From positions 16,398-80,397 of the forward strand of contig CALFER010000076.1 in the NCBI GenBank assembly GCA_937951895.1: a stretch of DNA of 64,000 bases, written 5' to 3'. Each line of letters opens with the position of its first letter. Position 1 is the stretch's first letter. The notes beneath the pieces are model-generated. The model was not told where the DNA came from and did not search any database. It saw nothing but the letters and a program-made list of their open reading frames with translations. A program made the position numbers and the translations under genes. This document shows positions 20,272 to 55,981 of the stretch, in pieces. This stretch comes from an uncultured bacterium (lineage in GTDB: Bacteria; CSSED10-310; CALFER01).

Positions 20272-21786
20272 TTAATGCGACTCGTCCCAACTGAAATCCC
20301 AGGAATCCATCGCGCCGACCAGAAATGAGAACTCCGCATCGGTCATGCCTGCATACCAGATGAGTCCTGACACGCTACCGGCGTTGTCGGGAAAACTGAA
20401 CGGAGGAACGACCACCTGTTCCGTGATTCCGGGCATCAGGGATTCGAAGAGATAGTGATCGAATGCCGTGAATCCGGGCGCGAAGTAGTACTGGCCGAAT
20501 GCATCCAGAACGACAAAGAGGGGGACATGCTCCATGGCCTGTGGTCCGGGATTGCACACATGGACGATGCAGGAACAGGGATCACCGGGGTGAAAAAAGT
20601 GCGACGGCATCCACAGTTCGACTCCGAGACTCCCGCAGGACGCCGTCGGAGATGCTGAGGGCGTCGCGGTGGGTGTGGGCGTTGCCGTTGGAATGGCAAC
20701 TACAAGATAATGATACCCCATATCGACCATTCCAAGATCCGTAATCTGATCCGTCCGGGTGGTATATGAATCGAGACAGGATGGCGGTTCAACACCTGGA
20801 AAGCAAGTGTCCTGTGCCGGACTGTCACCCGAATCGATGCATGGGCTGTCCTGTGCCTGTCCGGCCGAGGTTGACGACAGGTAATATTCGCCAAGCGGGC
20901 CTGGCGTGAAGAGCGGTATTGCATCGATGTTCCCATCCCCTTCATAACCGCCTCCGATGTTCGAGTAACGAATGGTCGGATTCCCCCCGATGTTGGTTCC
21001 ATAATTATGAACGATCGAGTTGACAATCAAAGCTGATCCCTGAATGCCTCCGGTTCCAGAAAGGGACGCTTCTCCACTATTGTTCACGATCGAGCAGTTG
21101 CTGATATGCGCCGTATCACACCGTATTCCTCCAACTGCTCTCCCCGCCGGATTGTCCCATGCCGCCGCGTCATTATCTGAAATGATGCAATTGAAGAACG
21201 ATGGATCGCCTCCGATCGCCCAGACACCGGCCACGACTTCAGCGTCGAACAGATACCAATCTTCGCATTCGATCATGTTTTGCGTGATCCAACAGCTCAG
21301 AAAGATGGCCTGCGACGACCCGAGATAGACACCCGCCCCGGCATGCTCACCATCTCCGCACCAGGCCGAATTGTAGATGATTTTGCAGTTCGAGATGACT
21401 GGAGAGGCACTTTCGATCTGCATGCCGGTTCCGTAATCGCCATACTGAAGAAACTGCGTGATGGTAAAGCCGTTCAGACGCGATGCATTCCCTTCTTCAT
21501 GATCAAAAATGAATCCGATGTGGTTGACCGCATAGTTGCCGTTGACGATGGTGTCGTCAGGACCGGTTTCCGAGGTGACGGTGATGGCTTTTCCGAGAAA
21601 ACGAATATCTCTGTTGCCGTCTCCGGAATAGACACCCGGAGCGACCAGAACGGTATCATAATCCCCGGCGGCATCGATACCGGCCTGGATGGTCGGTTGA
21701 TCTCCCGGCACCCGGATCACCAGAGCGTGTCCGGCAACAGGAAGAAGCAGAATCAGTGACAGGATGAATAGTGTGTGTTTCATCAC
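20272..21786 (-). CDS. Secreted right-handed beta-helix (adhesin / choice-of-anchor-Q-like) protein with novel C-terminal domain
   Basis: The signal peptide is 'MMKHTLFILSLILLLPVAGHA'. 'IRVPGDQPTIQAGIDAA..DTVLVAPGVY' is the typical start of beta-helix adhesin-like proteins. Parallel beta-helix repeats are present. A post-helix module 'YYLSSTSAGQAQDSPCIDSGD...TTRTDQITDLGMVDMGYHY' follows. A PT linker and then the C-terminal domain complete the protein. Confidence 0.7.
   Translation of the reverse strand: MMKHTLFILSLILLLPVAGHALVIRVPGDQPTIQAGIDAAGDYDTVLVAPGVYSGDGNRDIRFLGKAITVTSETGPDDTIVNGNYAVNHIGFIFDHEEGNASRLNGFTITQFLQYGDYGTGMQIESASPVISNCKIIYNSAWCGDGEHAGAGVYLGSSQAIFLSCWITQNMIECEDWYLFDAEVVAGVWAIGGDPSFFNCIISDNDAAAWDNPAGRAVGGIRCDTAHISNCSIVNNSGEASLSGTGGIQGSALIVNSIVHNYGTNIGGNPTIRYSNIGGGYEGDGNIDAIPLFTPGPLGEYYLSSTSAGQAQDSPCIDSGDSPAQDTCFPGVEPPSCLDSYTTRTDQITDLGMVDMGYHYLVVAIPTATPTPTATPSASPTASCGSLGVELWMPSHFFHPGDPCSCIVHVCNPGPQAMEHVPLFVVLDAFGQYYFAPGFTAFDHYLFESLMPGITEQVVVPPFSFPDNAGSVSGLIWYAGMTDAEFSFLVGAMDSWDFSWDESH
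20280..20650. repeat. ~370-nt direct repeat (~90% nucleotide identity) with 21865..22235, covering the C-terminal domain coding regions of two tandem paralogs
   Basis: Direct comparison of the two stretches shows long identical runs, e.g. 'ggaatccatcgcgccgacca', 'gaactccgcatcggtcatgcctgcataccaga' and 'gatagtgatcgaatgccgtgaatccgggcgcgaagtagtactggccgaatgc'. Confidence 0.85.
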
Positions 21787-24647: not shown

Positions 24648-24817
24648 GGTAACCTCCTTATGTTCTGTGAAAACAAATTTGCAAAAAATATGCCATGTAT
24701 TCAATTCACCAACCGGGAAAAATAATCGGAAACGTGTTATAAAATGGATATGGCGTGAGCCGGATCGTGATTTCATTATCGGAGCAGTCAGTTTCCGGAA
24801 TTTTGCAAGGAGGAAAC

Positions 24818-40233: not shown

Positions 40234-41967
40234 ATGAAAGCGTTTTTACTCGCGGCAAGCATCATGATCGTCATCGGATCGCCGGTATCGGCCGCCGTCA
40301 TCCGAGTGCCCTCGGATCAACCGACCATCCAGACGGGACTGGATGCAGCCCTGTCCGGCGATATCGTTCTGGTCGCTCCCGGAGTGTATACCGAGTCGCT
40401 CGAATGGCCCGGTCTCGCAGTATTGACCCTTCGAGGCGAGTTTCCCGAAAACCGTCCGGTTGTCTCGGCACCCGCAGATAAGCGGTGTCTCCACTACACA
40501 CCGGGAGTCTCGGGTACGGAGATGCGGCTCGAGCATGTCGTGTTTGAAAACGGTGCTCCTGTCAATCAATCCGGAGGAGCCTTGTACGTGACCGGTTGTC
40601 GGGTGCAGATTGACGATTGCGTGTTCCGGAACAATGACGCGGGGCAGGACGGTGGCGGCGTCTATTTCTCGACATGTGAGGTCTCGATCGCAAACTCGAC
40701 GATCTCGGACAACCATTCCATCGATCATGGGGGAGGCGGGTACTTCGCCGATTGCGGCATCGCGCTCCTCGACTGCACCGTCGAGCGAAACGATACGGGA
40801 GTTGCCGAGCATGTGTACAGCGATGGTCTCGGGCTGTATCTGAACGATTGCCACGGGTCGGTCTCGCATTGCGCGATTCGGGATCATGGCAATGCTTACA
40901 TCGATGGCTCCGGGATCTATGCACGGGGTGATATCGATTTTGTCGGCAATACATTCGAGCGCAACGAACAGCAGGGCAGTGACTATTACGGCGGTGCGCT
41001 GAATGTCTGGGGATCCTGCCTGGTCCGGAACAATCTTTTTACGGACAACGTCGGGATCGGATCGGCGATCGTCGCGGGAGGTGGTGTGGACATCGAGAAT
41101 TGTCTGTTTCTGGGAAATGCGAGTTCATTCCCGGGAACCGGGGCGATTCTCGCGCTGGATCAGACCGATGTCTCTTTCTGCACTTTTGTCAGCAATACGT
41201 CTGCCGGTGTGCAGGTGCTCAACAGCATGGATCCGGTGCCGATCCGGCACTGTATCTTCTCCGGCAATCAGGTCGGTATCGCGAATTACAACGGCAATTC
41301 ATCGGTTCATTCCGGATACAACGCCTTCTGGAACAACGGGATGGACTATAGTGCCGTGAACCCCGGAGCCGGTGATCTGCGAGGATCGGATCCACTGTTT
41401 GTCACGGGGTCTCAAGGCGCGCATTATTTGAGTCAAACAGCTTCGGGGCAGAGTCAGACGAGTCCGTGTGTGGATGCGGGGGATCCCGAGACCGGGGCTT
41501 CGCCCGGTGGGACGACCCGTACCGACGAGGTGCCGGATGAAGGCAGAGTCGATCTCGGGTATCATTTTTCTGCTCCGGATTCACCTCCCGTTCCCGCGCC
41601 CACTGTGACACCGGCCACGTGGACAGGTGTTCGACTGACGCTTCCCGACACGGATCTTCAGGCGGGGGATCGGTTCGTTCTGACCGCGACCTGCCGGGCG
41701 CCGGCCGGGCATGCAGCCGCGGATCTGTATGTCGTTCTGGATGTCTTCGGCGAGTATTTTTTCTATCCGTCCTGGTCGAATACTCCGGGATCCGAAAGCA
41801 TCGTGCTGGCACCGGATGCGGCGGTCGAGCGGAGAATTCTGGATTTCGTCTGGCCTGCGGGTGATGTCGGAGTTGTGACCGACCTGCAATTCCGGGGAGC
41901 CATTCTGGAACCCGGGACAACGTCCGTGATCGGGGAGATCGATTCCGTTTCGTTCGGGTATCGGTAG
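40234..41967 (+). CDS. Secreted right-handed beta-helix protein with novel C-terminal domain
   Basis: A GGAAGGAG SD is present. The signal is 'MKAFLLAASIMIVIGSPVSA'. 'VIRVPSDQPTIQTGLDAALSGDIVLVAPGVY' follows. Beta-helix repeats are present. A post-helix module 'HYLSQTASGQSQTSPCVDAGDPE...TTRTDEVPDEGRVDLGYHF' follows. The C-terminal domain is 'LYVVLDVFGEYFFYPSW...FVWP'. Confidence 0.7.
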   Translation: MKAFLLAASIMIVIGSPVSAAVIRVPSDQPTIQTGLDAALSGDIVLVAPGVYTESLEWPGLAVLTLRGEFPENRPVVSAPADKRCLHYTPGVSGTEMRLEHVVFENGAPVNQSGGALYVTGCRVQIDDCVFRNNDAGQDGGGVYFSTCEVSIANSTISDNHSIDHGGGGYFADCGIALLDCTVERNDTGVAEHVYSDGLGLYLNDCHGSVSHCAIRDHGNAYIDGSGIYARGDIDFVGNTFERNEQQGSDYYGGALNVWGSCLVRNNLFTDNVGIGSAIVAGGGVDIENCLFLGNASSFPGTGAILALDQTDVSFCTFVSNTSAGVQVLNSMDPVPIRHCIFSGNQVGIANYNGNSSVHSGYNAFWNNGMDYSAVNPGAGDLRGSDPLFVTGSQGAHYLSQTASGQSQTSPCVDAGDPETGASPGGTTRTDEVPDEGRVDLGYHFSAPDSPPVPAPTVTPATWTGVRLTLPDTDLQAGDRFVLTATCRAPAGHAAADLYVVLDVFGEYFFYPSWSNTPGSESIVLAPDAAVERRILDFVWPAGDVGVVTDLQFRGAILEPGTTSVIGEIDSVSFGYR

Positions 41968-43532: not shown

Positions 43533-44912
43533 ATGAGCACGAGCAGGAAAAAGCGATCGGTGAAGCCGGAAGCCACGCAGGCGATCCTCGAAAGCATCTC
43601 GGACGGAGTGTTTACCGTTGATTCCGACTGGCTGGTGACATCGTTCAATCGTGCTGCCGAGATGATTACCGGTGTGCCGAGACGAGAGGCGATCGGACGT
43701 CGATGTTCGGATGTGTTTCGTTCCAACATGTGCGGATCCGCCTGTGCACTCGCCCGGACGCTTAAAACCGGTAAACCGATCATCGGGAAAGCCGGCTTCA
43801 TCATCAATTCGGAGGGGCGACGGATCCCGATCAGCATTTCGACGGCCGTGCTCAGAGACGAACAGGGGCGGGTGATCGGAGGAGCCGAAACGTTTCGGGA
43901 TTTATCCGAGATCGAGGCCCTGCGGCAGGAACTGGAAAGCCGGACGCGTGTCGGTGATCTGAGCAGCCGCAGTCCTGTCATGCATCGGATACTGGAGGTT
44001 CTTCCGGCGATTGCGGCGAGTCCGAGTACGGTGCTGATCTGCGGTGAAACCGGGACGGGCAAAGAGCTTGTTGCTCGAACAATTCACTCGCTCAGCCCGC
44101 ATCAGAAAGGCCCGTTCATTGCCGTGAATTGCGGTGCGATACCGGATGCGCTGCTGGAATCGGAGTTGTTCGGATATAAAAGTGGCGCCTTCACCGGAGC
44201 GCTGCGCGACAAACCCGGCCGTTTTGCCCTCGCGCGTGGAGGAACCCTGTTTCTCGATGAAATCGGTGAGATCAGTGCGGCGTTGCAGGTGCGCCTCCTC
44301 AGAGTGCTTCAGGAACATACATTCGATCCACTGGGGGCGACGCACTCCGAGTCGACCGATGCCCGGGTGATCGTTGCGACACACCGTGATCTTCTGGAGT
44401 GCATGAGAGCCGGAACGTTCCGGGAAGATCTCTATTATCGGATCAATGTGGTGCGGATCGAGTTGCCGCCGCTTCGACGCCGCAGGGAAGACATTCCTCT
44501 CCTCATCGACCAGTTCATCGCACGGTTCAACCGGCTTCAGCAGAAATCCATCCGGGGAATCTCCACCGATGCACTCTCGCTGTGTATGACCCACGACTGG
44601 CCGGGCAATATCCGGGAACTCGAAAACGCTATCGAACACGCGTTCGTTCTGCGGTCCGAGGGCACGATCGAGATTGCGGATCTTCCGGGCGAGTTCACCG
44701 CTCGGTTCGGATTTACGTGCCGGGATATCCCCATCCGATCCTCCCGCGATGTGCTCGATGCTCACGCCATCCGAGCGGCTCTCGAACGTAATCACAACAA
44801 CCGTCTGGCTGCCGCCCGGGATCTCGGGATCCATAAAACTACGCTGTTCCGCAAGATCAAAAAACTCGGGATCCGCCTCGCGAAGCAGGACGGACGGCAC
44901 AGAACACGTTGA
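43533..44912 (+). CDS. Sigma-54-dependent transcriptional activator (PAS - AAA+ - HTH, NtrC family, no receiver domain)
   Basis: An N-terminal PAS domain is present. The AAA+ module has 'GETGTGKELVA' and the GAFTGA motif ('GYKSGAFTGAL'). 'ESELFGY' and the R-finger region are present. The C-terminal Fis-type HTH is 'RLAAARDLGIHKTTLFRKIKKLGI'. Confidence 0.85.
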   Translation: MSTSRKKRSVKPEATQAILESISDGVFTVDSDWLVTSFNRAAEMITGVPRREAIGRRCSDVFRSNMCGSACALARTLKTGKPIIGKAGFIINSEGRRIPISISTAVLRDEQGRVIGGAETFRDLSEIEALRQELESRTRVGDLSSRSPVMHRILEVLPAIAASPSTVLICGETGTGKELVARTIHSLSPHQKGPFIAVNCGAIPDALLESELFGYKSGAFTGALRDKPGRFALARGGTLFLDEIGEISAALQVRLLRVLQEHTFDPLGATHSESTDARVIVATHRDLLECMRAGTFREDLYYRINVVRIELPPLRRRREDIPLLIDQFIARFNRLQQKSIRGISTDALSLCMTHDWPGNIRELENAIEHAFVLRSEGTIEIADLPGEFTARFGFTCRDIPIRSSRDVLDAHAIRAALERNHNNRLAAARDLGIHKTTLFRKIKKLGIRLAKQDGRHRTR

Positions 44913-45053
44913 TAGAGTAGCGATATAGAGACTGTAGCGAATCGACAAGGTAGTGTTTGCGCTACTCATTTGTGGTGTCTTCTCCACGGAGAATCTCATT
45001 CGAATCATTTCATATCAATACGTTAGAGCGTATTATCCGTTGAGCGACCCGGT

Positions 45054-45069
45054 TGGCATCAGCTTTGCT
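45054..45069 (+). promoter_or_regulatory. Sigma-54 (-24/-12) promoter TGGCAT-N5-TTTGCT upstream of the Fe-S operon
   Basis: GG lies at 45055-45056 and GC at 45067-45068, so the spacing is exactly the canonical 10 nt between them (consensus TGGCAC-N5-TTGCW). The element lies ~30 nt upstream of the AAGGAGGG SD and the ATG at 45100. It lies immediately downstream of the sigma-54 activator gene. Confidence 0.6.
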
Positions 45070-45099
45070 CTTATCACTTTCCGGAAAGGAGGGCGCATC

Positions 45100-45603
45100 A
45101 TGATCGCTTTCGCCTGTTGGGACAATCGCATCGCACCGGTTTTCGATACCGCCGAAACCCTTGTCCTGCTCGAAACGCGATCCGATTCCGCTCATCGTCG
45201 GCAGGAATCCCTGCCGTCCGGGAGTTCGATGCAACAGATTCGGATGCGCCTGACTGAATGTGCTGTCGACACGCTGATCTGCGGGGCGATTTCGCGCCCG
45301 CTCTTCGATCATCTCACGTTCAGCGGAATGCGGGTCATTCCGTTCGTTTCGGGTGATCTGGACGAAGTAATCGAGGCTTTTTGCCGGAATCGGCTCGATT
45401 CCGACCGGTTTTCGATGCCGGGATGTTGCGGCCGCGGACGCAGGGCGGCGCACGGGCGTGGAAGCCATATACGCGGGAATGCCGGACCCGGCGGAGAATG
45501 CGGATGTCCGGCTTGTGGCTATCGGGAACCTCACGAGAGTGGGATTCCCTGTGTGGAACGTGTGTGTCCGAACTGCCGTACCGCGTTGGTGCGGCTGTCA
45601 TGA
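45100..45603 (+). CDS. NifX/NifB-C-terminal-like (dinitrogenase FeMo-cofactor family, Nitro_FeMo-Co) domain protein with Cys-rich tail
   Basis: The start is refined to the ATG at 45100. 'MIAFACWDNRIAPVFDTAETLVLLE' fits the NifX-like fold. The C-terminal Cys cluster is 'CGCPACGY...CPNC'. Confidence 0.65.
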   Translation: MIAFACWDNRIAPVFDTAETLVLLETRSDSAHRRQESLPSGSSMQQIRMRLTECAVDTLICGAISRPLFDHLTFSGMRVIPFVSGDLDEVIEAFCRNRLDSDRFSMPGCCGRGRRAAHGRGSHIRGNAGPGGECGCPACGYREPHESGIPCVERVCPNCRTALVRLS

Positions 45604-45617
45604 AAGGAGATTTGAAC

Positions 45618-45932
45618 ATGCCAAGAGGAGATGGAACAGGACCGAGAGGAATGGGACCGATGAGCGGTCGTAGAGCGGGATTCTGTGCGGGTTTCGGTAT
45701 GGCGGGCTATGCCAATCCGATTCAGGGTCGTGGAATGGGGATGGGTTTTGGGCGTGGGATGGGTCGCTGGCGCGGGTTCGCGGCCTATCCGCCGCAACCG
45801 ATGGCCGTTGAACCGGAAATGGAAGCCGACACGCTGCGAAACCAGCTTGATGCCCTGAAAACGACGCTCGACACGATCCAGAAGCGACTCGATCAGATCG
45901 AAAAGAGCGCGCCAAAGGAGGCGACCACGTGA
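45618..45932 (+). CDS. DUF5320-like Gly/Met-rich protein with C-terminal coiled coil
   Basis: The N-terminus is 'MPRGDGTGPRGMGPMSGRRAGFCAGFGMAGY'. Proteins with this N-terminus recur beside NifX-like/MinD-ferredoxin genes in anaerobes. The C-terminus is helical ('LRNQLDALKTTLDTIQKRLDQIEK'). An AAAGGAGA SD is present. Confidence 0.6.
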   Translation: MPRGDGTGPRGMGPMSGRRAGFCAGFGMAGYANPIQGRGMGMGFGRGMGRWRGFAAYPPQPMAVEPEMEADTLRNQLDALKTTLDTIQKRLDQIEKSAPKEATT

Positions 45933-46291
45933 AAGTCGCTCTGACCACAACCGGCTCCAATCTGTCAGATCCTCTCGAACCGCGATTCGGTCGCGCCCCC
46001 AAATTCCTCGTCTACGATCTCGATTCGGATACCTTCATGGTCCTCGACAACAACAAGAATCTCAATGCGGTTCAAGGCGCCGGCATCCAGTCCGCCGATA
46101 CCATCGCCCGGATCGGCGCTTCGGCACTCATCACCGGGCATTGCGGGCCCAAAGCCTTCCGCGTTCTCAGTGCGGCCGGTGTCAAGGTGTACGCGTCGTC
46201 CGCTCGAACGGTCGAGGAAGCGATCGATTTGTTCCGGCAGGGTAAGCTCAACGAGACCCAATCTGCGGATGTCGAGGGACATTGGGTGTGA
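45929..46291 (+). CDS. NifX/NifB-like (Nitro_FeMo-Co) domain protein
   Basis: 'MKVALTTTGSNLSDPLEPRFGRAPKFLVYDLDSD' is the classic start of the family. The gene has a GTG start with an AAGGAGG SD. Confidence 0.75.
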   Translation: MKVALTTTGSNLSDPLEPRFGRAPKFLVYDLDSDTFMVLDNNKNLNAVQGAGIQSADTIARIGASALITGHCGPKAFRVLSAAGVKVYASSARTVEEAIDLFRQGKLNETQSADVEGHWV

Positions 46292-47130
46292 TCATCGCGA
46301 TCGCATCGGGGAAAGGTGGAACCGGAAAAACAACTCTCTCTGTCAATCTCGCACTCGCCGCACATGAACCCATCCAGTTGCTGGATTGTGACGTCGAAGC
46401 ACCCAACGCGCATCTGTTTCTGAACCCTTTCGTCATCGAGTCGACTGTCGTGCACGTGCCGATCCCGGTGGTCGACGAATCGGCCTGCGATGGGTGCGGT
46501 GAGTGCGGAAGGATGTGCGAGTATCACGCGATCGTCTCGTTCGGCAGCGTCCCGCTCGTGTTCCCGGAGATGTGCCACGGATGCGGAGGCTGCATGCGGG
46601 TGTGTCCCCGGCATGCAATATCGGAAAAAGGACATCGGATTGGAGAAGTCCATGTTTCGACGGTTGGGCATATCACGCTGATCGAAGGCAAAATCGATGT
46701 CGGAATCGCCATGGCGCCGCCTCTGATCCGGGCGGTCAAATCGCGACTGTCAGCCTCCGTCCCTGTCCTGCTCGATGCCCCCCCGGGGACATCCTGCCCC
46801 GTCATTGCATCGATTCGCGATGCTGATTTCGTCATTCTGGTGACCGAACCAACCGCCTTCGGTCTCCATGACCTGAGTCTTGCGGTCGACATGACGCGCG
46901 CCCTGCATCGTCCTTTTGCCGTTGTTGTCAATCGGATGGGGATCGGCGATGATCGCGTGCATCGATTCTGCCGGGAGGAGGGGATCCGGATTCTGGCGGA
47001 AATTCCCGATGACAGGCGGATCGCCGAGGCGTATTCGGAGGGCAGATCGATTGTCGATGCGATTCCTGCGTATCGCGGCCTTTTTCATTCCATCCTGAAT
47101 CAAATCGGTATCGTGTCCCTCTCACTTTAA
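46282..47130 (+). CDS. MinD/ParA-superfamily P-loop ATPase with 2x[4Fe-4S] ferredoxin insert (COG1149-type)
   Basis: The P-loop is 'ASGKGGTGKTT'. Two ferredoxin motifs are present: 'CDGCGECGRMCEYHAI' and 'CHGCGGCMRVCPRHAI'. Confidence 0.8.
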   Translation: MGVIIAIASGKGGTGKTTLSVNLALAAHEPIQLLDCDVEAPNAHLFLNPFVIESTVVHVPIPVVDESACDGCGECGRMCEYHAIVSFGSVPLVFPEMCHGCGGCMRVCPRHAISEKGHRIGEVHVSTVGHITLIEGKIDVGIAMAPPLIRAVKSRLSASVPVLLDAPPGTSCPVIASIRDADFVILVTEPTAFGLHDLSLAVDMTRALHRPFAVVVNRMGIGDDRVHRFCREEGIRILAEIPDDRRIAEAYSEGRSIVDAIPAYRGLFHSILNQIGIVSLSL

Positions 47131-47141
47131 GGAGATCAGTC

Positions 47142-47402
47142 ATGCCGACATACGAATACGTTTGCGGGAAGTGCGGGTCACGTTTCGAACGGAGGCAATC
47201 GATATCCGATCCCCCGCTGGTCGAATGCGATTCCTGCCATGGCCCGTTGAAACGGGTGATCAGCGGCGGTGCGGGGTTCATCATGAAAGGCGGCGCTCAG
47301 CATCATTCGTCTCGGACCGGATGTTCGCTTGAGACACACGGCAGAACCTGCTGCGGGCGCTCGGAACGGTGCGGAAAACCCTCCTGCGATGATCCTGCAT
47401 GA
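47142..47402 (+). CDS. FmdB-family zinc ribbon protein
   Basis: 'MPTYEYVCGKCGSRFE...CDSCHG' matches the FmdB-family zinc ribbon. Confidence 0.7.
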   Translation: MPTYEYVCGKCGSRFERRQSISDPPLVECDSCHGPLKRVISGGAGFIMKGGAQHHSSRTGCSLETHGRTCCGRSERCGKPSCDDPA

Positions 47403-47409
47403 ATCCCCA

Positions 47410-48417
47410 ATGAATCAACACGATCACAGATTCGCTTTCGGGGTCGTCCCCTCACGGCGACTCGGAAACAGTCTCGGGATTAACTCGATTCCTTATAAAA
47501 CCTGCAGCTACGACTGTTCGTACTGCCAGGTCGGTCCGACTGTGGGTCGGACGATTGACCGGCGGCGTTTCTTTCCGGTCGAAACGATCATCCGGGCCGC
47601 ATCAGGATGCATGGCACCTGAGCATGCTCCTCCTCCCTGCATCGACTTCATCACGATAGTCCCGGATGGTGAACCGACACTCGACGCCGAACTCGGTTCC
47701 CTCATCGAGCAGCTTCATACGCTCAGTCACCGCGTCGCCGTGATCACAAACGGATCGTTGCTCTGGCGGGAGGATGTCAGGGAAGACCTCATGGCAGCTG
47801 ACTGGATCAGTGTCAAGATCGATACGATCGATCCGGATATCTGGCGACGGATCAACCGCCCTCACGAGTCGCTTGATCTCACACGGATTCTCGAAGGGAT
47901 AAGTCGCTTTGCACAAGCATTTACCGGAACACTGGTTACTGAAACCATGCTGGTCGATGGATTCAATCACTCCGACACATCGATCGAAAATCTCGCAGGA
48001 TTCATCCGATCGCTTCACCCTTCCAAAGCCTATCTCAGCATTCCGATTCGGCCGCCTGTTCGGAGCGGCGTGCGTCCACCCGACGCAAGCAGGTTGACCA
48101 GAGTGATTTCGATCATGGCTGAACACGGTGTTCCGGTTGTCGACCTGTTCGAGCATGAATCCGATCCCTTCCAGATATCATCGGATCTCGAAAACCAGTT
48201 GCTCGGCATCACCGCCGTTCATCCGATCCGGGAAGAGGCATTGCTGGATATCGTGACCCGTTCTGGAATGGATTGGGAGGTGATCCGAAACATGATCGAA
48301 AACGGTCTGTTGATTCGAACCGTTCACAACGGGCACGTTTTTTATCGGAAGGCACACAGGCAAAAGGATATCTCGGGAACAGAACCAATCGGGGGTAAGG
48401 AGATGGTCGATGCATGA
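47410..48417 (+). CDS. Radical SAM domain protein
   Basis: The start is refined to the ATG at 47410. The CxxxCxxC motif is 'CSYDCSYC'. The Gly-rich SAM region is 'IVPDGEPTL'. Confidence 0.7.
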   Translation: MNQHDHRFAFGVVPSRRLGNSLGINSIPYKTCSYDCSYCQVGPTVGRTIDRRRFFPVETIIRAASGCMAPEHAPPPCIDFITIVPDGEPTLDAELGSLIEQLHTLSHRVAVITNGSLLWREDVREDLMAADWISVKIDTIDPDIWRRINRPHESLDLTRILEGISRFAQAFTGTLVTETMLVDGFNHSDTSIENLAGFIRSLHPSKAYLSIPIRPPVRSGVRPPDASRLTRVISIMAEHGVPVVDLFEHESDPFQISSDLENQLLGITAVHPIREEALLDIVTRSGMDWEVIRNMIENGLLIRTVHNGHVFYRKAHRQKDISGTEPIGGKEMVDA

Positions 48418-49288
48418 GTATGTCATTATCAGCGGAAAGGGTGGGACGGGTAAAACGAGTATGACCGCGTCGTTTGCGTATCTTGCGGGGCAATCCGTCA
48501 TCGTGGACTGCGACGTCGATGCCGCCGACCTGCATCTCGTTCTGTCCCCCCGGATCGTCACGCAGCATGAGTTTTTCAGCGGACATGAAGCGCGTATCCG
48601 CGAGGATCTCTGTACCGGATGCGGGGTATGTCACGAGGTGTGTCGCTTTGAAGCGGTTCATGACATTTCGAAACCCGATGGAACAACAGGGTACCGCATC
48701 GATCCGATCGCCTGTGAAGGCTGCGGGGTCTGTGTGCGATTCTGTCCGGCGAAGGCGATTGACTTTCCGGAAAAGCGCTGCGGGACGTGGATGATTTCCG
48801 AAACCCGCTGCGGTCCGATGGTGCATGCCCGGTTGGGGGTTGCCGCCGAGAATTCCGGGAAACTGGTGTCGACGGTCCGCCGGGAAGCGCGTCGGCTGGC
48901 TGAAACGCAGCATCGGTCGCTGATCCTGGTCGATGGTCCGCCCGGGATCGGCTGCCCCGTTATCGCATCCCTGACCGGCGCCACAAAAGTGCTCGTGGTC
49001 ACCGAACCGACCGTATCGGGTGAGCACGATCTGAAGCGGGTGCTCGCCTTGACCCGCCATTTCAGAATCCCGACTGCGATCTGCGTCAACAAATGGGATC
49101 TCAATCCACACCTGACGGACCGGATCGAAGCCGTCGCTCTCGAATCGGGCGCACGCGTTGCCGGCAGGGTGCGATATGATTCCGGAGTAACCGCCGCGCA
49201 GCTTCAGCAGCGATCAGTAGTTGAAACTTCCGCGCCGAGCGCGCGCGATATCGTAACGACCTGGCATCAAATTCAGGAGGCATCGTAG
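48410..49288 (+). CDS. MinD/ParA-superfamily P-loop ATPase with 2x[4Fe-4S] ferredoxin insert (second copy)
   Basis: The P-loop is 'ISGKGGTGKTS'. The ferredoxin motifs are 'CTGCGVCHEVCRFEAV' and 'CEGCGVCVRFCPAKAI'. Confidence 0.8.
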   Translation: MHEYVIISGKGGTGKTSMTASFAYLAGQSVIVDCDVDAADLHLVLSPRIVTQHEFFSGHEARIREDLCTGCGVCHEVCRFEAVHDISKPDGTTGYRIDPIACEGCGVCVRFCPAKAIDFPEKRCGTWMISETRCGPMVHARLGVAAENSGKLVSTVRREARRLAETQHRSLILVDGPPGIGCPVIASLTGATKVLVVTEPTVSGEHDLKRVLALTRHFRIPTAICVNKWDLNPHLTDRIEAVALESGARVAGRVRYDSGVTAAQLQQRSVVETSAPSARDIVTTWHQIQEAS

Positions 49289-49289
49289 T

Positions 49290-50588
49290 ATGAATTCGAA
49301 TCCGATCACCGGTATGTCAGCTCTGGCAACCGAACTTGCCGTGCATCCAAAAAACGCGAACCCTCTCCCGGATTTCAGTTCCCATGGAACGATCAAAGGT
49401 CCCTGCGGAGACACCATGGCGATCTGGCTGGCATTCCGAGGGGATCGTGTGGCTGGCGCCTCGTTCGTGACCGACGGGTGCGGATCATCACGGGCCTGTG
49501 CCAGCATGGCCACGATCCTGGCTGAAGGCAAAACACTCGATGAAGTTGAAGCAATCCGCCAGGAGGACATATTGACCGCATTGGGAGGTATTCCGGCGGA
49601 GTATCAGCATTGTGCATTGCTGGCAACGGATACGCTGAAAAAAGCGTGCAAAAGCTACCGTCAGAACCGAATCGTTTTCAAATCGGCCGCTCCCCATGCC
49701 GCATCGTCCTGCTCCTCATGTAAAAATGCGGATTGCAGCGCGGCATCCAGACTGAAAGATGAGACTGACGAAGACTATGCAGATCGCCGGCAATTGCAGG
49801 CCAGATTGTGCCGGATCGAGCGGAAAATCGTCGTGCTGTCCGGAAAAGGCGGCGTCGGGAAAAGCACTGTCGCGGTCAATCTCGCCTGTGCACTCATGCT
49901 CTCGGGTAAAAAAGTCGGATTGCTCGATGTGGATATTCACGGTCCGAGCATTCCCACCATGTTGAATCTCTCCGAAGCGCGACTCCAGGGAAACCGCGAC
50001 GGTTTCCTGCCGATCGAAATCGGTGATCTCAAGGTCATGTCTCTGGGATTTCTTCTCAGGAACCAAGACGATGCCGTGATCTGGCGCGGGCCGATGAAAA
50101 TGGGTGTGATCAAACAGTTTCTGAAGGATGTTCAGTGGGGCGATCTGGACTATCTCATCATCGATTCTCCGCCGGGAACCGGTGACGAGCCGCTCTCGGT
50201 ATGCCAGCTCATCGGCTCCCTCGATGGCGCCGTCATCGTCACGACACCTCAGAAGGTCGCTTCGGTCGATGTGCGCAAATCGGTTTCCTTCTGCAGGCAA
50301 CTGCGCGTGCCGGTGATTGGTGTCGTCGAGAACATGAGCGGATTTGTGTGCCCGAAGTGCGGGGAGATCACCCAGATTCTGCCGGCTGGCGGTGGACGGG
50401 CGATTGCTCAAGACATGAATGTGCCGTTCCTGGGTGCTATTCCACTGGATCCTTCGATCGCCGAGGCGGGTGACGAAGGCAAGGCATTCATTCATCACTG
50501 GATGGATACCGCGACCGCGCAGATCATGAACCGTATCATATCGAACATCGCATCGATCGATCCCGGCACACCCTCGCAGGGATCATGA
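49290..50588 (+). CDS. NifU/IscU-like scaffold domain fused to Mrp/NBP35/ApbC-type Fe-S cluster carrier ATPase
   Basis: The N-terminus carries the three Cys positions of U-type scaffolds: 'GPCGDTMAIWL', 'DGCGSSRAC' and 'HCALLATD'. The C-terminal Mrp-like domain has the P-loop 'SGKGGVGKST', 'DIHGPSIP' and the 'CPKCGE' CxxC motif. Confidence 0.8.
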   Translation: MNSNPITGMSALATELAVHPKNANPLPDFSSHGTIKGPCGDTMAIWLAFRGDRVAGASFVTDGCGSSRACASMATILAEGKTLDEVEAIRQEDILTALGGIPAEYQHCALLATDTLKKACKSYRQNRIVFKSAAPHAASSCSSCKNADCSAASRLKDETDEDYADRRQLQARLCRIERKIVVLSGKGGVGKSTVAVNLACALMLSGKKVGLLDVDIHGPSIPTMLNLSEARLQGNRDGFLPIEIGDLKVMSLGFLLRNQDDAVIWRGPMKMGVIKQFLKDVQWGDLDYLIIDSPPGTGDEPLSVCQLIGSLDGAVIVTTPQKVASVDVRKSVSFCRQLRVPVIGVVENMSGFVCPKCGEITQILPAGGGRAIAQDMNVPFLGAIPLDPSIAEAGDEGKAFIHHWMDTATAQIMNRIISNIASIDPGTPSQGS

Positions 50589-50604
50589 ACGAAGGAGAAT
50601 CAGG

Positions 50605-50943
50605 ATGAAGATCGCTATTCCATTGGCTCAAGGAAAATTGTCGCTGCATTTCGGTCATTGCGAGCAGTTCGCGATGATCGATGTTGACGCCGGTACGAAG
50701 ACAATCGTTCACAGAGAGGATATCGTCGCCCCGCCGCATGAACCCGGCCTGTTGCCGAGATGGCTTGCCGAGCGTGGAGCCGACATGATCATTGCAGGCG
50801 GCATGGGGCAGCGCGCGCAGAGTCTTTTCGAGCAGAATCGGATCGAGGTGTTGATCGGCGCTCCTTCCGACACGCCGGAGCGACTGGTGGAGGCATACCT
50901 CGGTGGAACACTCCAGTCCGGGGACAATGTGTGCGACCATTAA
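50605..50943 (+). CDS. NifX/NifB-like (Nitro_FeMo-Co) domain protein (third copy)
   Basis: 'MKIAIPLAQGKLSLHFGHCEQFAMIDVD' matches the family. A GAAGGAGAA SD is present. Confidence 0.75.
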   Translation: MKIAIPLAQGKLSLHFGHCEQFAMIDVDAGTKTIVHREDIVAPPHEPGLLPRWLAERGADMIIAGGMGQRAQSLFEQNRIEVLIGAPSDTPERLVEAYLGGTLQSGDNVCDH

Positions 50944-51081: not shown

Positions 51082-53319
51082 ATGAAACAAATGGAGTTCG
51101 TCTGCGCGCGACCGATGGGATGGATTGAGTCGACAGATCATGAGCGGGAAGCAGGATGTCGGTTCGCGACACTGATCATCCTGAGTATCCTGGCTCTCTG
51201 TATTGCCTGTGGACCCATGCAGGCGATGGTTGCTCAGGATAATCCGGACGTCCGGGTCCTGATGCTCATTCCTCATCATTGGGGAGCGAACACGATTCTC
51301 AATCTCAACAACTTCAAAAGCATGGGTTGGAATCTGACTGCGGCGGGTCTGACTCAGGATGTCGAGCCGTGTGCATGGTTCAAAAACAGCACCGGCGTCT
51401 CCTCTTTCCATACGGACGTTCTGATCTCGGACATCGACGATGTCAGCCGGTATGATGTCCTCGCGATCATGTCATCGAGCAGTCGGTATGGACAGAATCC
51501 CTACGGCGATCTTCTCGGGAGTCCCGAAACACTGACTCTGGTGCAGTCTGCGGTTCAGAACGGATTGGTTGTCTGGGCGACCTGTGCCGGTGTGCGGGTT
51601 CTGGCTGCGGCGGATGTGATCGAGGGTCGCAACGTGGTGGGATCGGCTCGATTTGCCGCCGAGTATGCCGCTGCCGGCGCAACCTTTCTCGGCGACGACC
51701 ACGCCCCGGTCATCGATGGCCCGATCGTGACGGCTGTTCGTGGTAACTACTATAACTATCACATCGCCGAGGCGATCGCCGTGGCTCTCGAACAACAGCC
51801 TGCCCGGTATCGACCCCTCGGAAAAGAAACGATCGAGTTGAATCAGCGGGATCTGCAGTGGTCGAACATCGACTGGGGAAAGGCGTTCGGGACGGACGCA
51901 TCGATCTGCGTGCGCGGTGTTTGTGCCGGCGAGGATGGCGGGTACGCCCTGGTTGGAATGATATCGACAATCGGGGGTTCAGATCTGATTCTGATCCTTG
52001 TCGATGCGTCCGGGAATCTGATCCGGTCGAAACAATTCGGCGGGGAACGCACGGATGACGGACACGCGATCTGCTCAGCCGCGGACGGGGGATATGTTCT
52101 TGCTGGTGTCAGCAACTCGTTTTCGTCGGATGGAAACCGTGATTTTTATGTTGTCCGGACAACGGCCCGGGGGGATCTCGTGTGGCAGAAGACCTTTGGC
52201 GGTTCCGCACTCGACTCGGCAAGCTCGGTTTGCCGGATCGAAAACGGCGGATATGTCATCTGCGGACGGACGGAAACCAAAGGTGCGGGTGAAGACGATG
52301 CCTGGATCATCCGAATAGACGATACGGGCGGGATGGTCTGGGAGGCGATTTTCGGCGGAACCCGCACGGATTCAGCAACGTATGTGACGGAATCCCGCGA
52401 TGGCAATGTTCTCGTGAGCATCGCCTGCGGATCTCCGGAATACAGCTCGAAAAACATGGATGATGCCATCCTTGCACTCGATTCATCCGGCCGTCCGCTC
52501 TGGTGGCATACATACAACAACGAATCCGGAGAAGGGTACGATTATCCGATGTCCCTCATCGAGACGGCTGATCGCGGGATCGTGATCACCGGATCGAGTG
52601 ACACGACTGTTCCGGTGGATTGCACGATCATCAAAACCGGACCGGATGGTACCCCGGAATGGACTCGGACCGAGGAAGGATCCTTTCATGAATTCGGAAT
52701 ACACACGATCGAATTGAATGATGGAACCATAAGCCTCGCGAACATCGATCAACCGGATCAATGGAATACCGACGCATGGCTGATCCGCCACGAGCGCACC
52801 GGCTCGGTTCGATGGGATCGGATCGCAGGAGGTGTTGAACATGATTGGGCGACCGCCATGTGCCGATCGACTGATTCCAGTATCATTGTCGTCGGTCACA
52901 CACAGTCGGTTTCATTGGATTGCCATGAGGCATTCATTGCGAAAATCCCCGCGGATTTCCTGTCTGTTCCTTCGGTCGAACTCGTGATGCCATCTGATTC
53001 GTTCGGCCCCGGTGATCTGTTTTCGATGGATGTCAGGATCTGGAACCCTGGCCTTGAAACGGTTCACTCGATTCCGCTATTCGTGATCCTGGACGTTTAC
53101 GGTGCGTTCTTTTTCTTCCCCGGATGGACTCGAGAGGCGGATTGGGAGAAAATCGATGTCCGGCCGGGAGCGGATCAGCACAGCGTGATCGGTCAATTCG
53201 AATGGCCCGGAGATGCTGGTTCAGCCGAGGGAATCGGAGTCTACGCCGCTATGACCGATTCTGCTGTGACCGAACTCTGGGGTGAATACGATCATCTCAC
53301 GTTCGGCTGGCATCCATGA
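51082..53319 (+). CDS. Secreted DJ-1/PfpI-like (class I glutamine amidotransferase-like) domain - SBBP beta-propeller repeats - novel C-terminal domain protein
   Basis: An AAGGAGG SD is present. The N-terminal domain has the nucleophile-elbow-like 'VVWATCAGVRVLAAADVI'. About 6 SBBP-type repeats are present ('DGGYVLAGVSNSFSSDGNRDFYVVRTTARGDLVWQKTFGG'). The C-terminal domain is 'LFVILDVYGAFFFFPGW...FEWPGD...FGWHP'. Confidence 0.65.
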   Translation: MKQMEFVCARPMGWIESTDHEREAGCRFATLIILSILALCIACGPMQAMVAQDNPDVRVLMLIPHHWGANTILNLNNFKSMGWNLTAAGLTQDVEPCAWFKNSTGVSSFHTDVLISDIDDVSRYDVLAIMSSSSRYGQNPYGDLLGSPETLTLVQSAVQNGLVVWATCAGVRVLAAADVIEGRNVVGSARFAAEYAAAGATFLGDDHAPVIDGPIVTAVRGNYYNYHIAEAIAVALEQQPARYRPLGKETIELNQRDLQWSNIDWGKAFGTDASICVRGVCAGEDGGYALVGMISTIGGSDLILILVDASGNLIRSKQFGGERTDDGHAICSAADGGYVLAGVSNSFSSDGNRDFYVVRTTARGDLVWQKTFGGSALDSASSVCRIENGGYVICGRTETKGAGEDDAWIIRIDDTGGMVWEAIFGGTRTDSATYVTESRDGNVLVSIACGSPEYSSKNMDDAILALDSSGRPLWWHTYNNESGEGYDYPMSLIETADRGIVITGSSDTTVPVDCTIIKTGPDGTPEWTRTEEGSFHEFGIHTIELNDGTISLANIDQPDQWNTDAWLIRHERTGSVRWDRIAGGVEHDWATAMCRSTDSSIIVVGHTQSVSLDCHEAFIAKIPADFLSVPSVELVMPSDSFGPGDLFSMDVRIWNPGLETVHSIPLFVILDVYGAFFFFPGWTREADWEKIDVRPGADQHSVIGQFEWPGDAGSAEGIGVYAAMTDSAVTELWGEYDHLTFGWHP

Positions 53320-55981
53320 TGATCTCGCTGAGCCGGGATAATCTGACACTGATTTCTTTGATACCGAGCGGATTGACGATCTCCCGGGCCAACGTGAGTG
53401 CCTCTTCATACAACGTTTGAGCCAGGGATAGCTCTCCGCTGCGCATCGCCACTCTTCCCAGACCTTGCAGACAATTGATCATGCCTCCGAAATCGGCGTC
53501 GATTCCGCGGCGCAGGTCGAGACTGTCGCGGTAGTACCGGTCTGCCCGTTCATCATCCGATGCATCCTCGAAAAACCGGCCAAGCATCTCGAGAGACATC
53601 GCGATTCCCCATTCATCTCCGATTCTGCGCCGGATCGACAGGCTCTCCTCGATTGCGGCATGCGCTGCCGACCAGTCTCCCAATTCGTAGAGGTGTGCGC
53701 CGACGGCTTCGAGATTCATCGCGACACCCCAATCATCTCGCCGACTGCGAAAGATCGTATCGACCCGGCGAAGTCGATCGAGATGATCCGGTATCGGTTC
53801 GGTTGATCCAATGAATGAACACAGATCAAACACGACCGCCCACTCGGCAGGATCCAGCTCCGGAGAGAGTTGCTGCAGTGCCTGATTCAGCAGTGTCTGC
53901 GCATTCTCTTTGCTGGCGAATCGCTGAAACCATCCATCGAAAGCCCGGCACATGGCGCTGATTCGCCTGCGTTCATCGGAGGTGGGATTCGATTGCCATC
54001 CCGGTCCGAATAAAGCGCACGCGTCCATGTTTCGGCTTCCGAGATCGAAAAAAATGAACAGAGGAAGAAGACATGCATCGATGGCGCGCAGTGCGTCGTG
54101 CTCGATCGCCCATCGCCATGCGAGCCTGATGTTGTCGATCTCTGCAACCAATGCACGCAATGCGTCCTTCTGGCGTGTTCCCTTCAGGTCGTCACTCAGC
54201 GATTGAACCAATCCCAGAAAATACTCCGCGTGAATTCGTTCCGCACGATCCCATTCGACCGGATCCGATTTCAATCGATCCCAGGCGAACTGGCGAATGA
54301 TCTCATGAATTTCAAACCGACTGTCTGCGGCTTTCCGGACCAATGATTTATCGATCAGGCGCGCGAGATCCTGCAGGTCGATCCCGGTAACTGCGCGCGC
54401 CGAATCCAGCGTGCATCCGCCACGCATGACGGCCAATCGGTTCAGGGTGGTCCGGTCTCCGGGGTCGAGTAAATTCCAGGAGTGATCGAAAACCGCCCTG
54501 AGCGACCGGTGACGTTCCGGACTGTCCTGATGCCTGCTGATCAAAAACCCCAGACTGCGCTCAATTTCACTCGCAATCTCATCACATGACAGCACATTGA
54601 TCCAAGAGGCCGCGAGCTCGATCGCCAACGGATTGCCCCCGACGAGCGAGCAGATTCGGTCGACTGCATCCGGATTGAACCGAGTCGATTCGGACTGACT
54701 GGAATTGCGGTGTGCGACGAGAATAAAAAACGGGATTGCGTCGCACTGCATGCCGGCAAGCTCATACACATGTTCCGCATCGAGATTGAGTCGCTCGCGT
54801 GAGGTGACCAGCACGCGGATGTCCGGTGCCGAGAGGAGTAACTCAGGCAGAAACGCCAGCCCCTCCACGAGATGATCCGCATTGTCGATGATCATGAGAA
54901 GATGCTTCGGTCTCAGTGCGTCGCGGATCCGCGGAGTATGCAGATCCAGTGCATCCTCGATTGCAGAGAGAATGAATTCCGGTGAGGTGACCGGCGCCAG
55001 ATTGATCCAGATTGCGCCATCCGAATACTGCTGTTCGATCCGATGGCCGGATTCCAGAGCCAATCGTGTCTTGCCGCTGCCGCCCGGTCCGGTCAGGGTC
55101 AGGAGCCGGATGGCTGGATTCGACAGCATCGCGATGAGATGGTCGAGTTCCTGCTGTCGACCGAAAAACGGCGTCATCGATTCGGGCAACGTGAAACGAC
55201 GGTTGAATTCTCGCCGTTGAGGTGCCGTATGTGACTGAATACGGTTCAGAAGCACCGAGGTTTCTCTGGACGGTGAAGCGCCTGTTTCATCCCGCAAAGC
55301 ATCGCGGCATATCTCAAATTGCCGGATCGCATCGGCGGTCCGGCCGGTCTGCCACAGTATCGACATGACGGTGCGATGCGCCTTTTCATCCGCCTGGTCC
55401 AGAGCGAGCAGACTCCGCGCATGCCGGATCGCTCGATCGAAGTGGCCGCGATTGTAATAGTCATCGATCAGCAGATTCAGCAAGTGTGTCTGTTCCGTCT
55501 GGAACCGGGCGACCTGCCCGGAGACCCAATGCTCGAACTCAACACTATCCCTCAGTGAATATCCGTTCATGAACGGTGCAAAATGGAGCGCGATGGCAGC
55601 CTCGATTTGGTCCCGATTGGAAGCGCTCAAGGGTCCCGCGGATGGAGGATTCGATGAAAAGAGTGAGTAACAGGTCCGGAATTCCAGCGCATCGATACGG
55701 ATTGAGCGGGTATTCAGTTGCACGTTCTGTCTGCCGGCCGTGAAAATGCCGGCAATGGGAGACCGATTCATTTCGTACAACGTATTGCGGAGTTGTTTGC
55801 GTGCCTGCTCCGGATTCGCTTCCGGCCATAGCAACGCCAGAAGTGTTTCTCGCGGGCAGGGATTCCGCTCGAGCGCCAGAAAGGCGAGAAGCGCGAAAGC
55901 GGCACGGCGTTCCAGAGCCAGGGCAGTGCCTGCGACCTGGAGGCGCGGAGGACCGAAAAGAGCGAGAAGCGGAACATCCAT
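53297..55981 (-). CDS. AfsR/SARP-family transcriptional regulator (winged-helix DNA-binding + BTAD + NB-ARC/AAA ATPase + TPR)
   Basis: The N-terminus 'ALFGPPRLQVAGTALALERRAAFALLAFLALE...LLALLWPE' is an OmpR/SARP-type winged-helix domain. A BTAD helical region follows. The P-loop is 'GPGGSGKTRLALE'. A C-terminal TPR-like region is present. Confidence 0.7.
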   Translation of the reverse strand: MDVPLLALFGPPRLQVAGTALALERRAAFALLAFLALERNPCPRETLLALLWPEANPEQARKQLRNTLYEMNRSPIAGIFTAGRQNVQLNTRSIRIDALEFRTCYSLFSSNPPSAGPLSASNRDQIEAAIALHFAPFMNGYSLRDSVEFEHWVSGQVARFQTEQTHLLNLLIDDYYNRGHFDRAIRHARSLLALDQADEKAHRTVMSILWQTGRTADAIRQFEICRDALRDETGASPSRETSVLLNRIQSHTAPQRREFNRRFTLPESMTPFFGRQQELDHLIAMLSNPAIRLLTLTGPGGSGKTRLALESGHRIEQQYSDGAIWINLAPVTSPEFILSAIEDALDLHTPRIRDALRPKHLLMIIDNADHLVEGLAFLPELLLSAPDIRVLVTSRERLNLDAEHVYELAGMQCDAIPFFILVAHRNSSQSESTRFNPDAVDRICSLVGGNPLAIELAASWINVLSCDEIASEIERSLGFLISRHQDSPERHRSLRAVFDHSWNLLDPGDRTTLNRLAVMRGGCTLDSARAVTGIDLQDLARLIDKSLVRKAADSRFEIHEIIRQFAWDRLKSDPVEWDRAERIHAEYFLGLVQSLSDDLKGTRQKDALRALVAEIDNIRLAWRWAIEHDALRAIDACLLPLFIFFDLGSRNMDACALFGPGWQSNPTSDERRRISAMCRAFDGWFQRFASKENAQTLLNQALQQLSPELDPAEWAVVFDLCSFIGSTEPIPDHLDRLRRVDTIFRSRRDDWGVAMNLEAVGAHLYELGDWSAAHAAIEESLSIRRRIGDEWGIAMSLEMLGRFFEDASDDERADRYYRDSLDLRRGIDADFGGMINCLQGLGRVAMRSGELSLAQTLYEEALTLAREIVNPLGIKEISVRLSRLSEIIMDASRT

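Follow-up and report, generated by a model that had tools for sequence, protein, structure and literature searches.

Positions 16,398 to 80,397 of contig CALFER010000076.1 (GenBank assembly GCA_937951895.1), from an uncultured bacterium of the GTDB lineage CSSED10-310 (CALFER01), were analysed as a single stretch of 64,000 nucleotides, here called the window, and all coordinates refer to it. Ten genes on the + strand at 43533-50943 probably represent a cluster of orp (ORange Protein) genes plus a regulator of the OrpR type, organized as one sigma-54 operon; judged from the sequence, we put the probability of this reading at about 0.8. The orp/OrpR system itself is already known. What is found here has a new architecture and comes from a new lineage, and three of its parts have not been described before in ORP systems, namely a NifU-Mrp fusion with a split Di-Nase domain, a zinc ribbon protein and a radical S-adenosylmethionine (SAM) enzyme.

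Gene content and relationship to the orp system of Desulfovibrio vulgaris

The cluster consists of an activator gene (43533-44912), a spacer of 187 nt and nine packed genes, g1 to g9; read from the sequence, neighbouring genes overlap by up to 10 nt or are separated by up to 16 nt. The first-pass annotation of this DNA had described nine tightly spaced genes on one strand behind an activator gene, which is confirmed, and Pfam searches bear out its domain calls (three NifX-like proteins, two MinD-ferredoxin proteins, a DUF5320 protein, a zinc ribbon, a radical-SAM enzyme and a NifU-Mrp protein). It had also held that the gene set has no assigned role. The set is nevertheless not uncharacterized: it is the ORP system of Desulfovibrio, although a physiological role (cell division) is so far only putative. 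The orp cluster of D. vulgaris was reportedly described by Fievet et al. in 2011, and the system is said to have been studied since then.

In D. vulgaris Hildenborough, the orp cluster (DVU2103-DVU2109) forms two divergent sigma-54 operons under the control of OrpR (PMC3897727, PMC6345978, PMC8359166). MrpORP, which is Orp9 of the ORP complex (DVU2109; also Dde_3202), combines an Mrp/NBP35 P-loop domain with a Di-Nase domain, and it hands Fe-S clusters in vitro to Orp3 and Orp4, which are MinD-type ATPases with a ferredoxin domain (PMC6345978). The earlier suggestion that the window operon serves the maturation or delivery of a metallocluster agrees with this transfer.

The window cluster shares with the D. 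vulgaris system a probable sigma-54 promoter, a putative palindromic enhancer upstream of it, a dedicated PAS-AAA+-HTH (helix-turn-helix) activator encoded beside its predicted target, a pair of MinD-ferredoxin paralogues, a homologue of the orange protein, a MrpORP carrier (56-58 % identical) and probably a DUF5320 (Orp5-like) protein. It differs in several respects. The genes form one co-directional operon, whereas in D. vulgaris two divergent operons flank the regulator gene, and among the related loci a divergent layout was found only in an Acidobacteriota locus (L018). The enhancer half-sites have a different sequence. MrpORP is encoded by two genes with an IscU/NifU domain fused N-terminally, rather than by one gene without a NifU domain, and a zinc-ribbon gene and a radical-SAM gene are added between the two ATPase genes. 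The host also lies outside the Deltaproteobacteria, to which the D. vulgaris cluster belongs, and the nearest named relative of the activator is from a Lentisphaeraceae metagenome-assembled genome (MAG), not from a deltaproteobacterium. The related loci, given here by numbers prefixed with L, comprise 60 from a genome scan with the activator and eight from homologue look-ups.

The product of g3 (45929-46291, 120 aa) has a single Nitro_FeMo-Co domain and is a homologue of the orange protein (ORP/Orp8). Among solved structures, the D. gigas orange protein (2WFB) is the best match (E-value 5e-19, residues 2-107 of 120). Two genes encode MinD-type P-loop ATPases resembling Orp3/Orp4, each with a CbiA/ParA domain and two Fer4 domains found by Pfam. 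In g4 (46282-47130) the 2x[4Fe-4S] ferredoxin is inserted in the CbiA-type ATPase; we place its start at 46282, versus 46288 for gene callers. The second, g7 (48410-49288), is a paralogue of g4 (33 % identical, 50 % similar). From their shared domain make-up and paralogy, g4 and g7 are regarded as Orp3/Orp4-like.

A DUF5320 protein beginning MPRGDGTGP is encoded by g2 (45618-45932; Pfam E-value 1e-26). We tentatively equate it with Orp5 (DVU2105), a homologue of the [2Fe-2S] protein Dde_3197, on the basis of seven residues: MPYGDGT, translated from a published primer that covers the start of DVU2105, versus MPRGDGT in g2. A full-text literature search for DUF5320 found nothing relevant.

The first gene, g1 (45100-45603), encodes a NifX-like protein with a Nitro_FeMo-Co domain and a Cys-rich tail, as defined by Pfam, synteny and an alignment of 17 homologues. 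It has an MPGCC motif, a Gly/Arg linker and a C-terminal CxCPxCG...PC...CPxC knuckle, and in the synteny comparison the gene directly behind the promoter is in all cases g1. In the 17-homologue alignment the tail differs by clade. The clade of the window has the CxCPxCG...PC...CPxC knuckles after the Gly/Arg linker, and the Desulfobacterales proteins have a MPRGDGTGP stretch (the N-terminal signature of DUF5320) and a Gly/Lys-rich end, without knuckles. A small open reading frame (ORF) of its own encodes the knuckle part in L010.

A MrpORP carrier split over two genes and fused to a scaffold domain

The product of g8 (49290-50588) combines an IscU/NifU-type scaffold domain (NifU_N), a Cys-rich linker and a MrpORP P-loop domain (Mrp/NUBPL ParA), as identified with Pfam and the NCBIfam equivalog for MrpORP (NF041136). 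The MrpORP Di-Nase domain (Nitro_FeMo-Co) is encoded separately by g9 (50605-50943), which has its own Shine-Dalgarno sequence. Against NF041136, g8 matches positions 2-250 (388 bits) and g9 matches positions 265-365 (132 bits), and together they span the model. For comparison with D. vulgaris, the DVU2109 sequence was transcribed from the supplementary alignment of PMC6345978. Residues 173-424 of g8 are 56 % identical to residues 71-327 of DVU2109 (E-value 2e-98), and g9 aligns without gaps to residues 376-487 at 58 % identity, with both proteins ending in CDH.

The published Di-Nase motifs are CxHFGHCE, PPHxPGxxP and a terminal CDH (PMC6345978). In g9 these appear as HFGHCE, PPHEPGLLP and a C-terminal CDH, the first Cys of CxHFGHCE being Ser. 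The P-loop domain of g8 contains GKGGVGKS and CPKC, and its N-terminal domain retains the three Cys of IscU (in GPCGD, DGCGS and QHC). The deviant Walker A motif, the CXXC motif, the N-terminal Cys-rich stretch and the Di-Nase motifs are thus all shared with MrpORP of DVU2109 and Dde_3202; the differences are that the Di-Nase domain is a separate gene and that an IscU-type scaffold is fused upstream of the P-loop domain.

The NifU-Mrp fusion reported in the first-pass annotation is present in g8 and is common rather than peculiar to it, as all 120 of the closest g8 homologues carry NifU_N fused to Mrp. Because approximately 25 of these 120 also include the Di-Nase domain (about 555 aa), g8 and g9 are considered to be the split form of a three-domain protein. 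We take IPR002871 to be NifU_N. If this is correct, a 2019 survey of 17,511 Mrp/NBP35 family members listed a single architecture with NifU_N and a P-loop domain.

The activator probably belongs with OrpR

The activator (459 aa) is an OrpR-type sigma-54 enhancer-binding protein in which Pfam identifies PAS_9 (23-126), Sigma54_activat (145-310), AAA_lid_14 (315-389) and the Fis-type HTH_8 (408-445). A sigma-54 activator without a receiver domain directly upstream of the operon had been predicted, and this was found. The AAA+ domain has an intact GAFTGA loop, and in a six-frame search this was the only GAFTGA protein in the window.

It had also been supposed that the PAS domain might sense a redox state directly. 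OrpR (DVU2106) holds a [4Fe-4S] cluster in its PAS domain for which C52, C61 and C65 are required, position 54 being a conserved D/E, and it is active at low potential, a rise of approximately 140 mV being enough to inactivate it (PMC8359166). The activator in the window has the corresponding motif as C58-x-D60-x6-C67-x3-C71, with spacing identical to that of C52/D-E54/C61/C65 in OrpR, which supports the supposition. The C-x-[DE]-x6-C-x3-C motif was present in 120 of the 120 closest activator homologues and in every related locus with a g1 homologue behind the activator gene. OrpR and the window activator are thus alike in the order of their three domains, in the absence of a receiver domain, in the PAS motif and in adjoining orp genes. 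They differ in DNA site, which is putative for the window activator, and in that DVU2106 has GAFTDA (PMC4641369) in place of GAFTGA.

The OrpR family has been stated to be restricted to the delta-Proteobacteria (PMC8359166). However, activators with the Cys-containing PAS domain were also found in Vibrio, Acidobacteriota, Planctomycetota, Spirochaetaceae, Fibrobacterota, Eisenbacteria and KSB1, and the OrpR-type family is far broader than the published limit.

Some more distant or atypical relatives were also recovered. Activator homologues with 36-42 % identity in L028-L032 and L046 have a PAS Cys pattern with four Cys (CH.VF.G.FCGG.CSFC) and no adjoining NifX-like gene, and they may constitute a sister family of Fe-S or metal-sensing activators. 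Some close homologues (P0002, P0008, P0011, P0016 and others) reach about 800 aa and contain additional PAS domains. In a Desulfobulbia locus (L020:10001-12007), activator N-terminal segments occur three times in tandem, and two of the three have the Cys motif.

Gene order in related loci

Conservation of the nine-gene order, which the first-pass annotation had proposed as a check, was found in exact form in L005, which is from the same lineage as the window (activators 98 % identical), and with insertions in two further loci. L068 has the same order with five inserted genes (AhpC, CGGC, rubrerythrin, a methyltransferase and a small ORF). L072, from an Eisenbacteria MAG, has the same order with a CGGC gene, and its MrpORP lacks NifU, being the canonical fusion of two domains. 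The extended layout recurs in other uncultured anaerobes. In L006 the radical-SAM gene and the Mrp domain are missing, and genes for ferritin, DUF4405, ARMT1 and a methyltransferase are inserted. In the Desulfobacterales loci, g1 comes first after the activator and the remaining genes are shuffled. The constant core across the loci consists of the activator, the promoter, g1 and the DUF5320 gene.

In some loci the core is followed by genes of a different kind, namely KatG in a Vibrio sp. MAG (L008:10001-14958), AhpC (L065:5456-9990; L068:10001-15236), rubrerythrin (L068), ferritin (L006:10001-13334) and ARMT1 (L070). With this arrangement of core and cargo, the family of regulators is connected in some lineages with defence against peroxide and iron. 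The H2O2-sensing activator PexR (PMC12754779) was considered in connection with the KatG and AhpC neighbours. Kinship with PexR was rejected because its sensor is a GAF domain and not a Cys-PAS domain.

The same cargo is what would favour an alternative in which the operon belongs to an oxidant-induced Fe-S repair or protection regulon, with oxidation of the cluster switching the activator on and the operon rebuilding damaged Fe-S proteins. KatG (L008), peroxiredoxin (L065 and L068), ferritin (L006) and rubrerythrin (L068) would all suit such a role. We consider this unlikely for the window, where the operon includes no detoxification gene; the link of KatG to the core in Vibrio is one of gene order, and OrpR of D. 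vulgaris works at low potential, being inactivated when the potential rises (PMC8359166).

The zinc ribbon and radical-SAM pair

Between the two ATPase genes lie g5 (47142-47402), which encodes an FmdB-family zinc ribbon protein (Zn_ribbon_8; Pfam and NCBIfam TIGR02605) with a Cys-rich C-terminal tail, and g6 (47410-48417, with an alternative start at 47389), which encodes a COG0731-like radical-SAM enzyme identified by Pfam, alignment and a structural model. A g5 homologue occupies the same slot in L006, L068 and L072.

The g6 family consists of proteins of about 320 aa that carry the Joint Genome Institute (JGI) label COG0731, "wyosine synthetase (radical SAM superfamily)". The nearest relatives are approximately 50 % identical, and some are found in OrpR-type operons (L065) while others stand alone (L066 and L067). 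The subfamily was to be identified by profile search, but g6 has no NCBIfam equivalog match; the best partial matches were to viperin-like proteins (42 bits), MoaA (37 bits) and TYW1 (27 bits), and PDB sequence matches were marginal. There is a single CxxxCxxC cluster site, and in an alignment of 36 homologues C32, C36 and C39 were the only invariant Cys. An AlphaFold model (pLDDT 84) has a partial-barrel radical-SAM core and a C-terminal winged-helix-like domain, and with this model Foldseek recovered only generic radical-SAM cores.

Radical-SAM genes in the same slot in L068 (16478-17422) and L072 (7067-8032) encode proteins only 31-34 % identical to g6, whereas the products of the flanking genes are 57-75 % identical to their window counterparts. 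This pattern suggests that the gene in the slot between g5 and g7 has either been displaced or evolved fast.

A radical-SAM gene, three genes for Nitro_FeMo-Co proteins and a NifU domain in one operon recall the NifB/NifX/NafY pathway of iron-molybdenum (FeMo) cofactor assembly, where a radical-SAM enzyme is likewise encoded with Nitro_FeMo-Co carriers and a NifU-type scaffold. In a split NifB-like pathway, g6 would build a metal-sulfur cofactor from Fe-S units made by NifU and the NifX-like proteins would deliver it to some enzyme. The best fold matches for the g6 model did include three NifB structures (7bi7, 7jmb and 6y1x), but pyruvate formate-lyase (PFL) activase, TYW1, RlmN and viperin score equally (14-19 % identity, TM about 0.5), and no NifB model is among the NCBIfam matches. 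With only the three radical-SAM Cys invariant in the 36 homologues, g6 lacks the ligands for the two auxiliary [4Fe-4S] (K) clusters of NifB. In addition, the radical-SAM gene is dispensable in many clusters orthologous to the window operon, being absent from L006, from the Desulfobacterales loci and from the D. vulgaris cluster (PMC6345978). The lack of auxiliary-cluster ligands and this dispensability are the reasons for rejecting a NifB-like pathway, which we regard as quite improbable. The earlier remark that nitrogenase is absent also holds, as there are no nitrogenase genes and no nitrogenase-like target near the operon.

Promoter element, putative enhancer and putative IHF site

A sigma-54 -24/-12 element, TGGCATCAGCTTTGCT (equivalent to TGGCATcagctTTGCT), is located at 45054-45069 on the + strand. 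It is 16 nt long, with its -12 GC 32 nt upstream of the g1 ATG (45100), and AAGGAGG is found at 45086-45092. The location and the GG-N10-GC spacing had been given correctly in the earlier annotation; the string typed there had 17 letters, one T too many. A consensus search of the window for sigma-54 sites showed the element to be one of two exact matches to TGGCAY-N5-TTGCW in 64 kb, where 0.12 are expected; at least two were found in none of 100 shuffles.

Conservation upstream of orthologous clusters had been set beforehand as a test of the promoter, and the element is kept in most related loci. TGGCA(T/C)-N5-TTGC(A/T) was found 36-53 nt before the g1 start in L005, L006, L009, L011-L015, L035, L065, L068, L069 and L072. 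Weaker versions are present in L008 (Vibrio) and L070 (Syntrophus), the element is further upstream in L016, and no clear match was seen in L022 and L071. The position is kept across unclassified MAGs, Desulfobacterales and Eisenbacteria.

Two palindromes that may serve as enhancer sites (upstream activating sequences) precede the promoter on the + strand. Site 1, AGTAGCGATATAGAGACT (44916-44933), is centred about 155 nt upstream of the predicted transcription start, and site 2, GGTAGTGTTTGCGCTACT (44949-44966), is 33 bp, or about three helical turns, from it. These are the only matches to AGTAGC-N6-GCTACT with up to two mismatches in the 64 kb. In nearly all related loci, paired AGTWGC-N6-GCWACT palindromes, 32-33 bp apart, are found about 100 nt upstream of the promoter, and in 13 loci their density was 4.9 per kb in the regions between activator and g1 versus 0.6 per kb elsewhere, an 8-fold difference. 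Promoter, palindrome pair and g1 are conserved in about 17 related loci, which belong to several phyla. A conserved palindrome pair in this position fits an enhancer, and binding by the activator is predicted; OrpR binds palindromes upstream of the sigma-54 promoters of neighbouring orp genes, to which its regulon is limited. Between enhancer and promoter, at 45013-45025 on the + strand, TATCAATACGTTA matches the consensus for integration host factor (IHF; WATCAR-N4-TTR) and is a putative IHF site. The D. vulgaris orp promoters carry IHF sites (PMC3897727), and the match in the window is placed as they are.

That the -24/-12 match is fortuitous and transcription occurs by read-through or from a sigma-70 promoter is extremely improbable. 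A weak sigma-70-like match at 45009-45036 (9 of 12 positions) and the lack of an RpoN box in the 64-kb window speak for it. Against it, the sigma-70 scan gave 5 matches versus 3.7 in shuffles, no excess, and the activator retains GAFTGA. The idea is rejected because both the sequence and the position of the element are kept in different phyla, as are the paired enhancer sites and an adjacent activator gene.

The second exact sigma-54 consensus match, TGGCATATTTTTTGCA, is on the minus strand at 24680-24695, 34 nt upstream of AGGAGG and the ATG (about 24646) of a gene for a secreted beta-helix-type protein. No activator gene or AGTAGC-type palindrome was found near it, and its presence suggests that sigma-54 is used elsewhere in the genome. 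Three proteins, encoded at 40234-41967, 20272-21783 and 21855-24646, have a signal peptide followed by the motif V(I/T)(R/H)VP(S/G/A)DQPT, and that at 40234-41967 matches Pfam Beta_helix. These large secreted proteins look like a paralogous family.

Points that weigh against an orp operon under redox control

Several observations weaken the reading of the cluster as an orp operon controlled by an OrpR-type activator. A six-frame search of the 64-kb window for an RpoN box (ARRTVAKYR-type) gave no match. The enhancer parallels the D. vulgaris OrpR site in architecture but not in sequence, AGTWGC-N6-GCWACT being different from the published site GGGCGYRTTTTGCGCCC (PMC8359166). The IHF consensus has two matches in 64 kb versus 1.9 expected and is not significant alone. 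Assignment of the activator to the OrpR family depends on the order of the domains, the spacing of the motif and the genomic context, and the single operon is read from the sequence. The role of the ORP complex in D. vulgaris is itself only putative (cell division). Finally, given that KatG, AhpC, ferritin and rubrerythrin are found behind the core in other lineages, the sense in which the activator responds to redox may vary between lineages.

Proposed mechanism

The homologies, the motifs and the conservation of promoter, enhancer and gene order are demonstrated in the present analysis. From the work on D. vulgaris, we infer that the activator binds a cluster, in which direction it responds to redox, that Fe-S clusters are transferred and that IHF takes part. 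Taking the cluster as an orp operon, the PAS domain of the activator would hold a redox-sensitive [4Fe-4S] cluster with C58, C67, C71 and probably D60 as ligands, and the activator would bind the tandem palindromes at 44916-44966. On oxidation of the cluster, the PAS domain would shut the activator off. The products would form an ORP-type metalloprotein complex made up of the two ATPases (g4 and g7) with g3, g1 and g2. A supply line would be provided by g8, an IscU scaffold joined to a MrpORP carrier, which would assemble [4Fe-4S] clusters and deliver them to g4 and g7, with the g9 Di-Nase protein as the partner of g8. The zinc ribbon and radical-SAM proteins, g5 and g6, would be an accessory pair.

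A wider scheme is speculative and, in our view, doubtful. An OrpR-type activator, a NifX-like first gene and a DUF5320 gene might constitute a cross-phylum, redox-gated core with interchangeable cargo (ORP, peroxide defence or ferritin). In its extended form, this might be a self-contained assembly line, with an IscU-MrpORP fusion independent of ISC/SUF and with the g5/g6 pair modifying or loading a Cys-rich peptide or metallocluster of the ORP complex.

Sequences flanking the operon

No convincing intrinsic terminator was seen after g9; a terminator-like match at 44949-44966 is enhancer site 2. Directly 3' of the operon, at 51082-53319, is a gene for a 745-aa protein with a DJ-1/PfpI domain, and convergent with it is a gene for an 894-aa BTAD-AAA-TPR regulator (53297-55981). 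A DJ-1/PfpI gene is also found near the activator in L071.

Implications for the ORP system

So far the ORP system has been studied in only two Desulfovibrio species. The orp variant described here does not overturn current knowledge. The ORP system and its Fe-S-based regulator reach well beyond the Deltaproteobacteria, contrary to the published limit on OrpR (PMC8359166). In the study of MrpORP it was asked whether its clusters come from the general ISC/SUF systems or whether MrpORP acts in parallel with them (PMC6345978). The IscU-Mrp fusion, which is common in uncultured anaerobes, bears on this question, and a covalent link between scaffold and carrier argues for a dedicated, direct hand-over of clusters. 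The zinc-ribbon and radical-SAM pair, which at least three lineages carry between the genes for the two ATPases, points to components of the ORP system that are not yet described, and the peroxide-defence genes behind the same core offer new systems in which to test what this regulator family senses.

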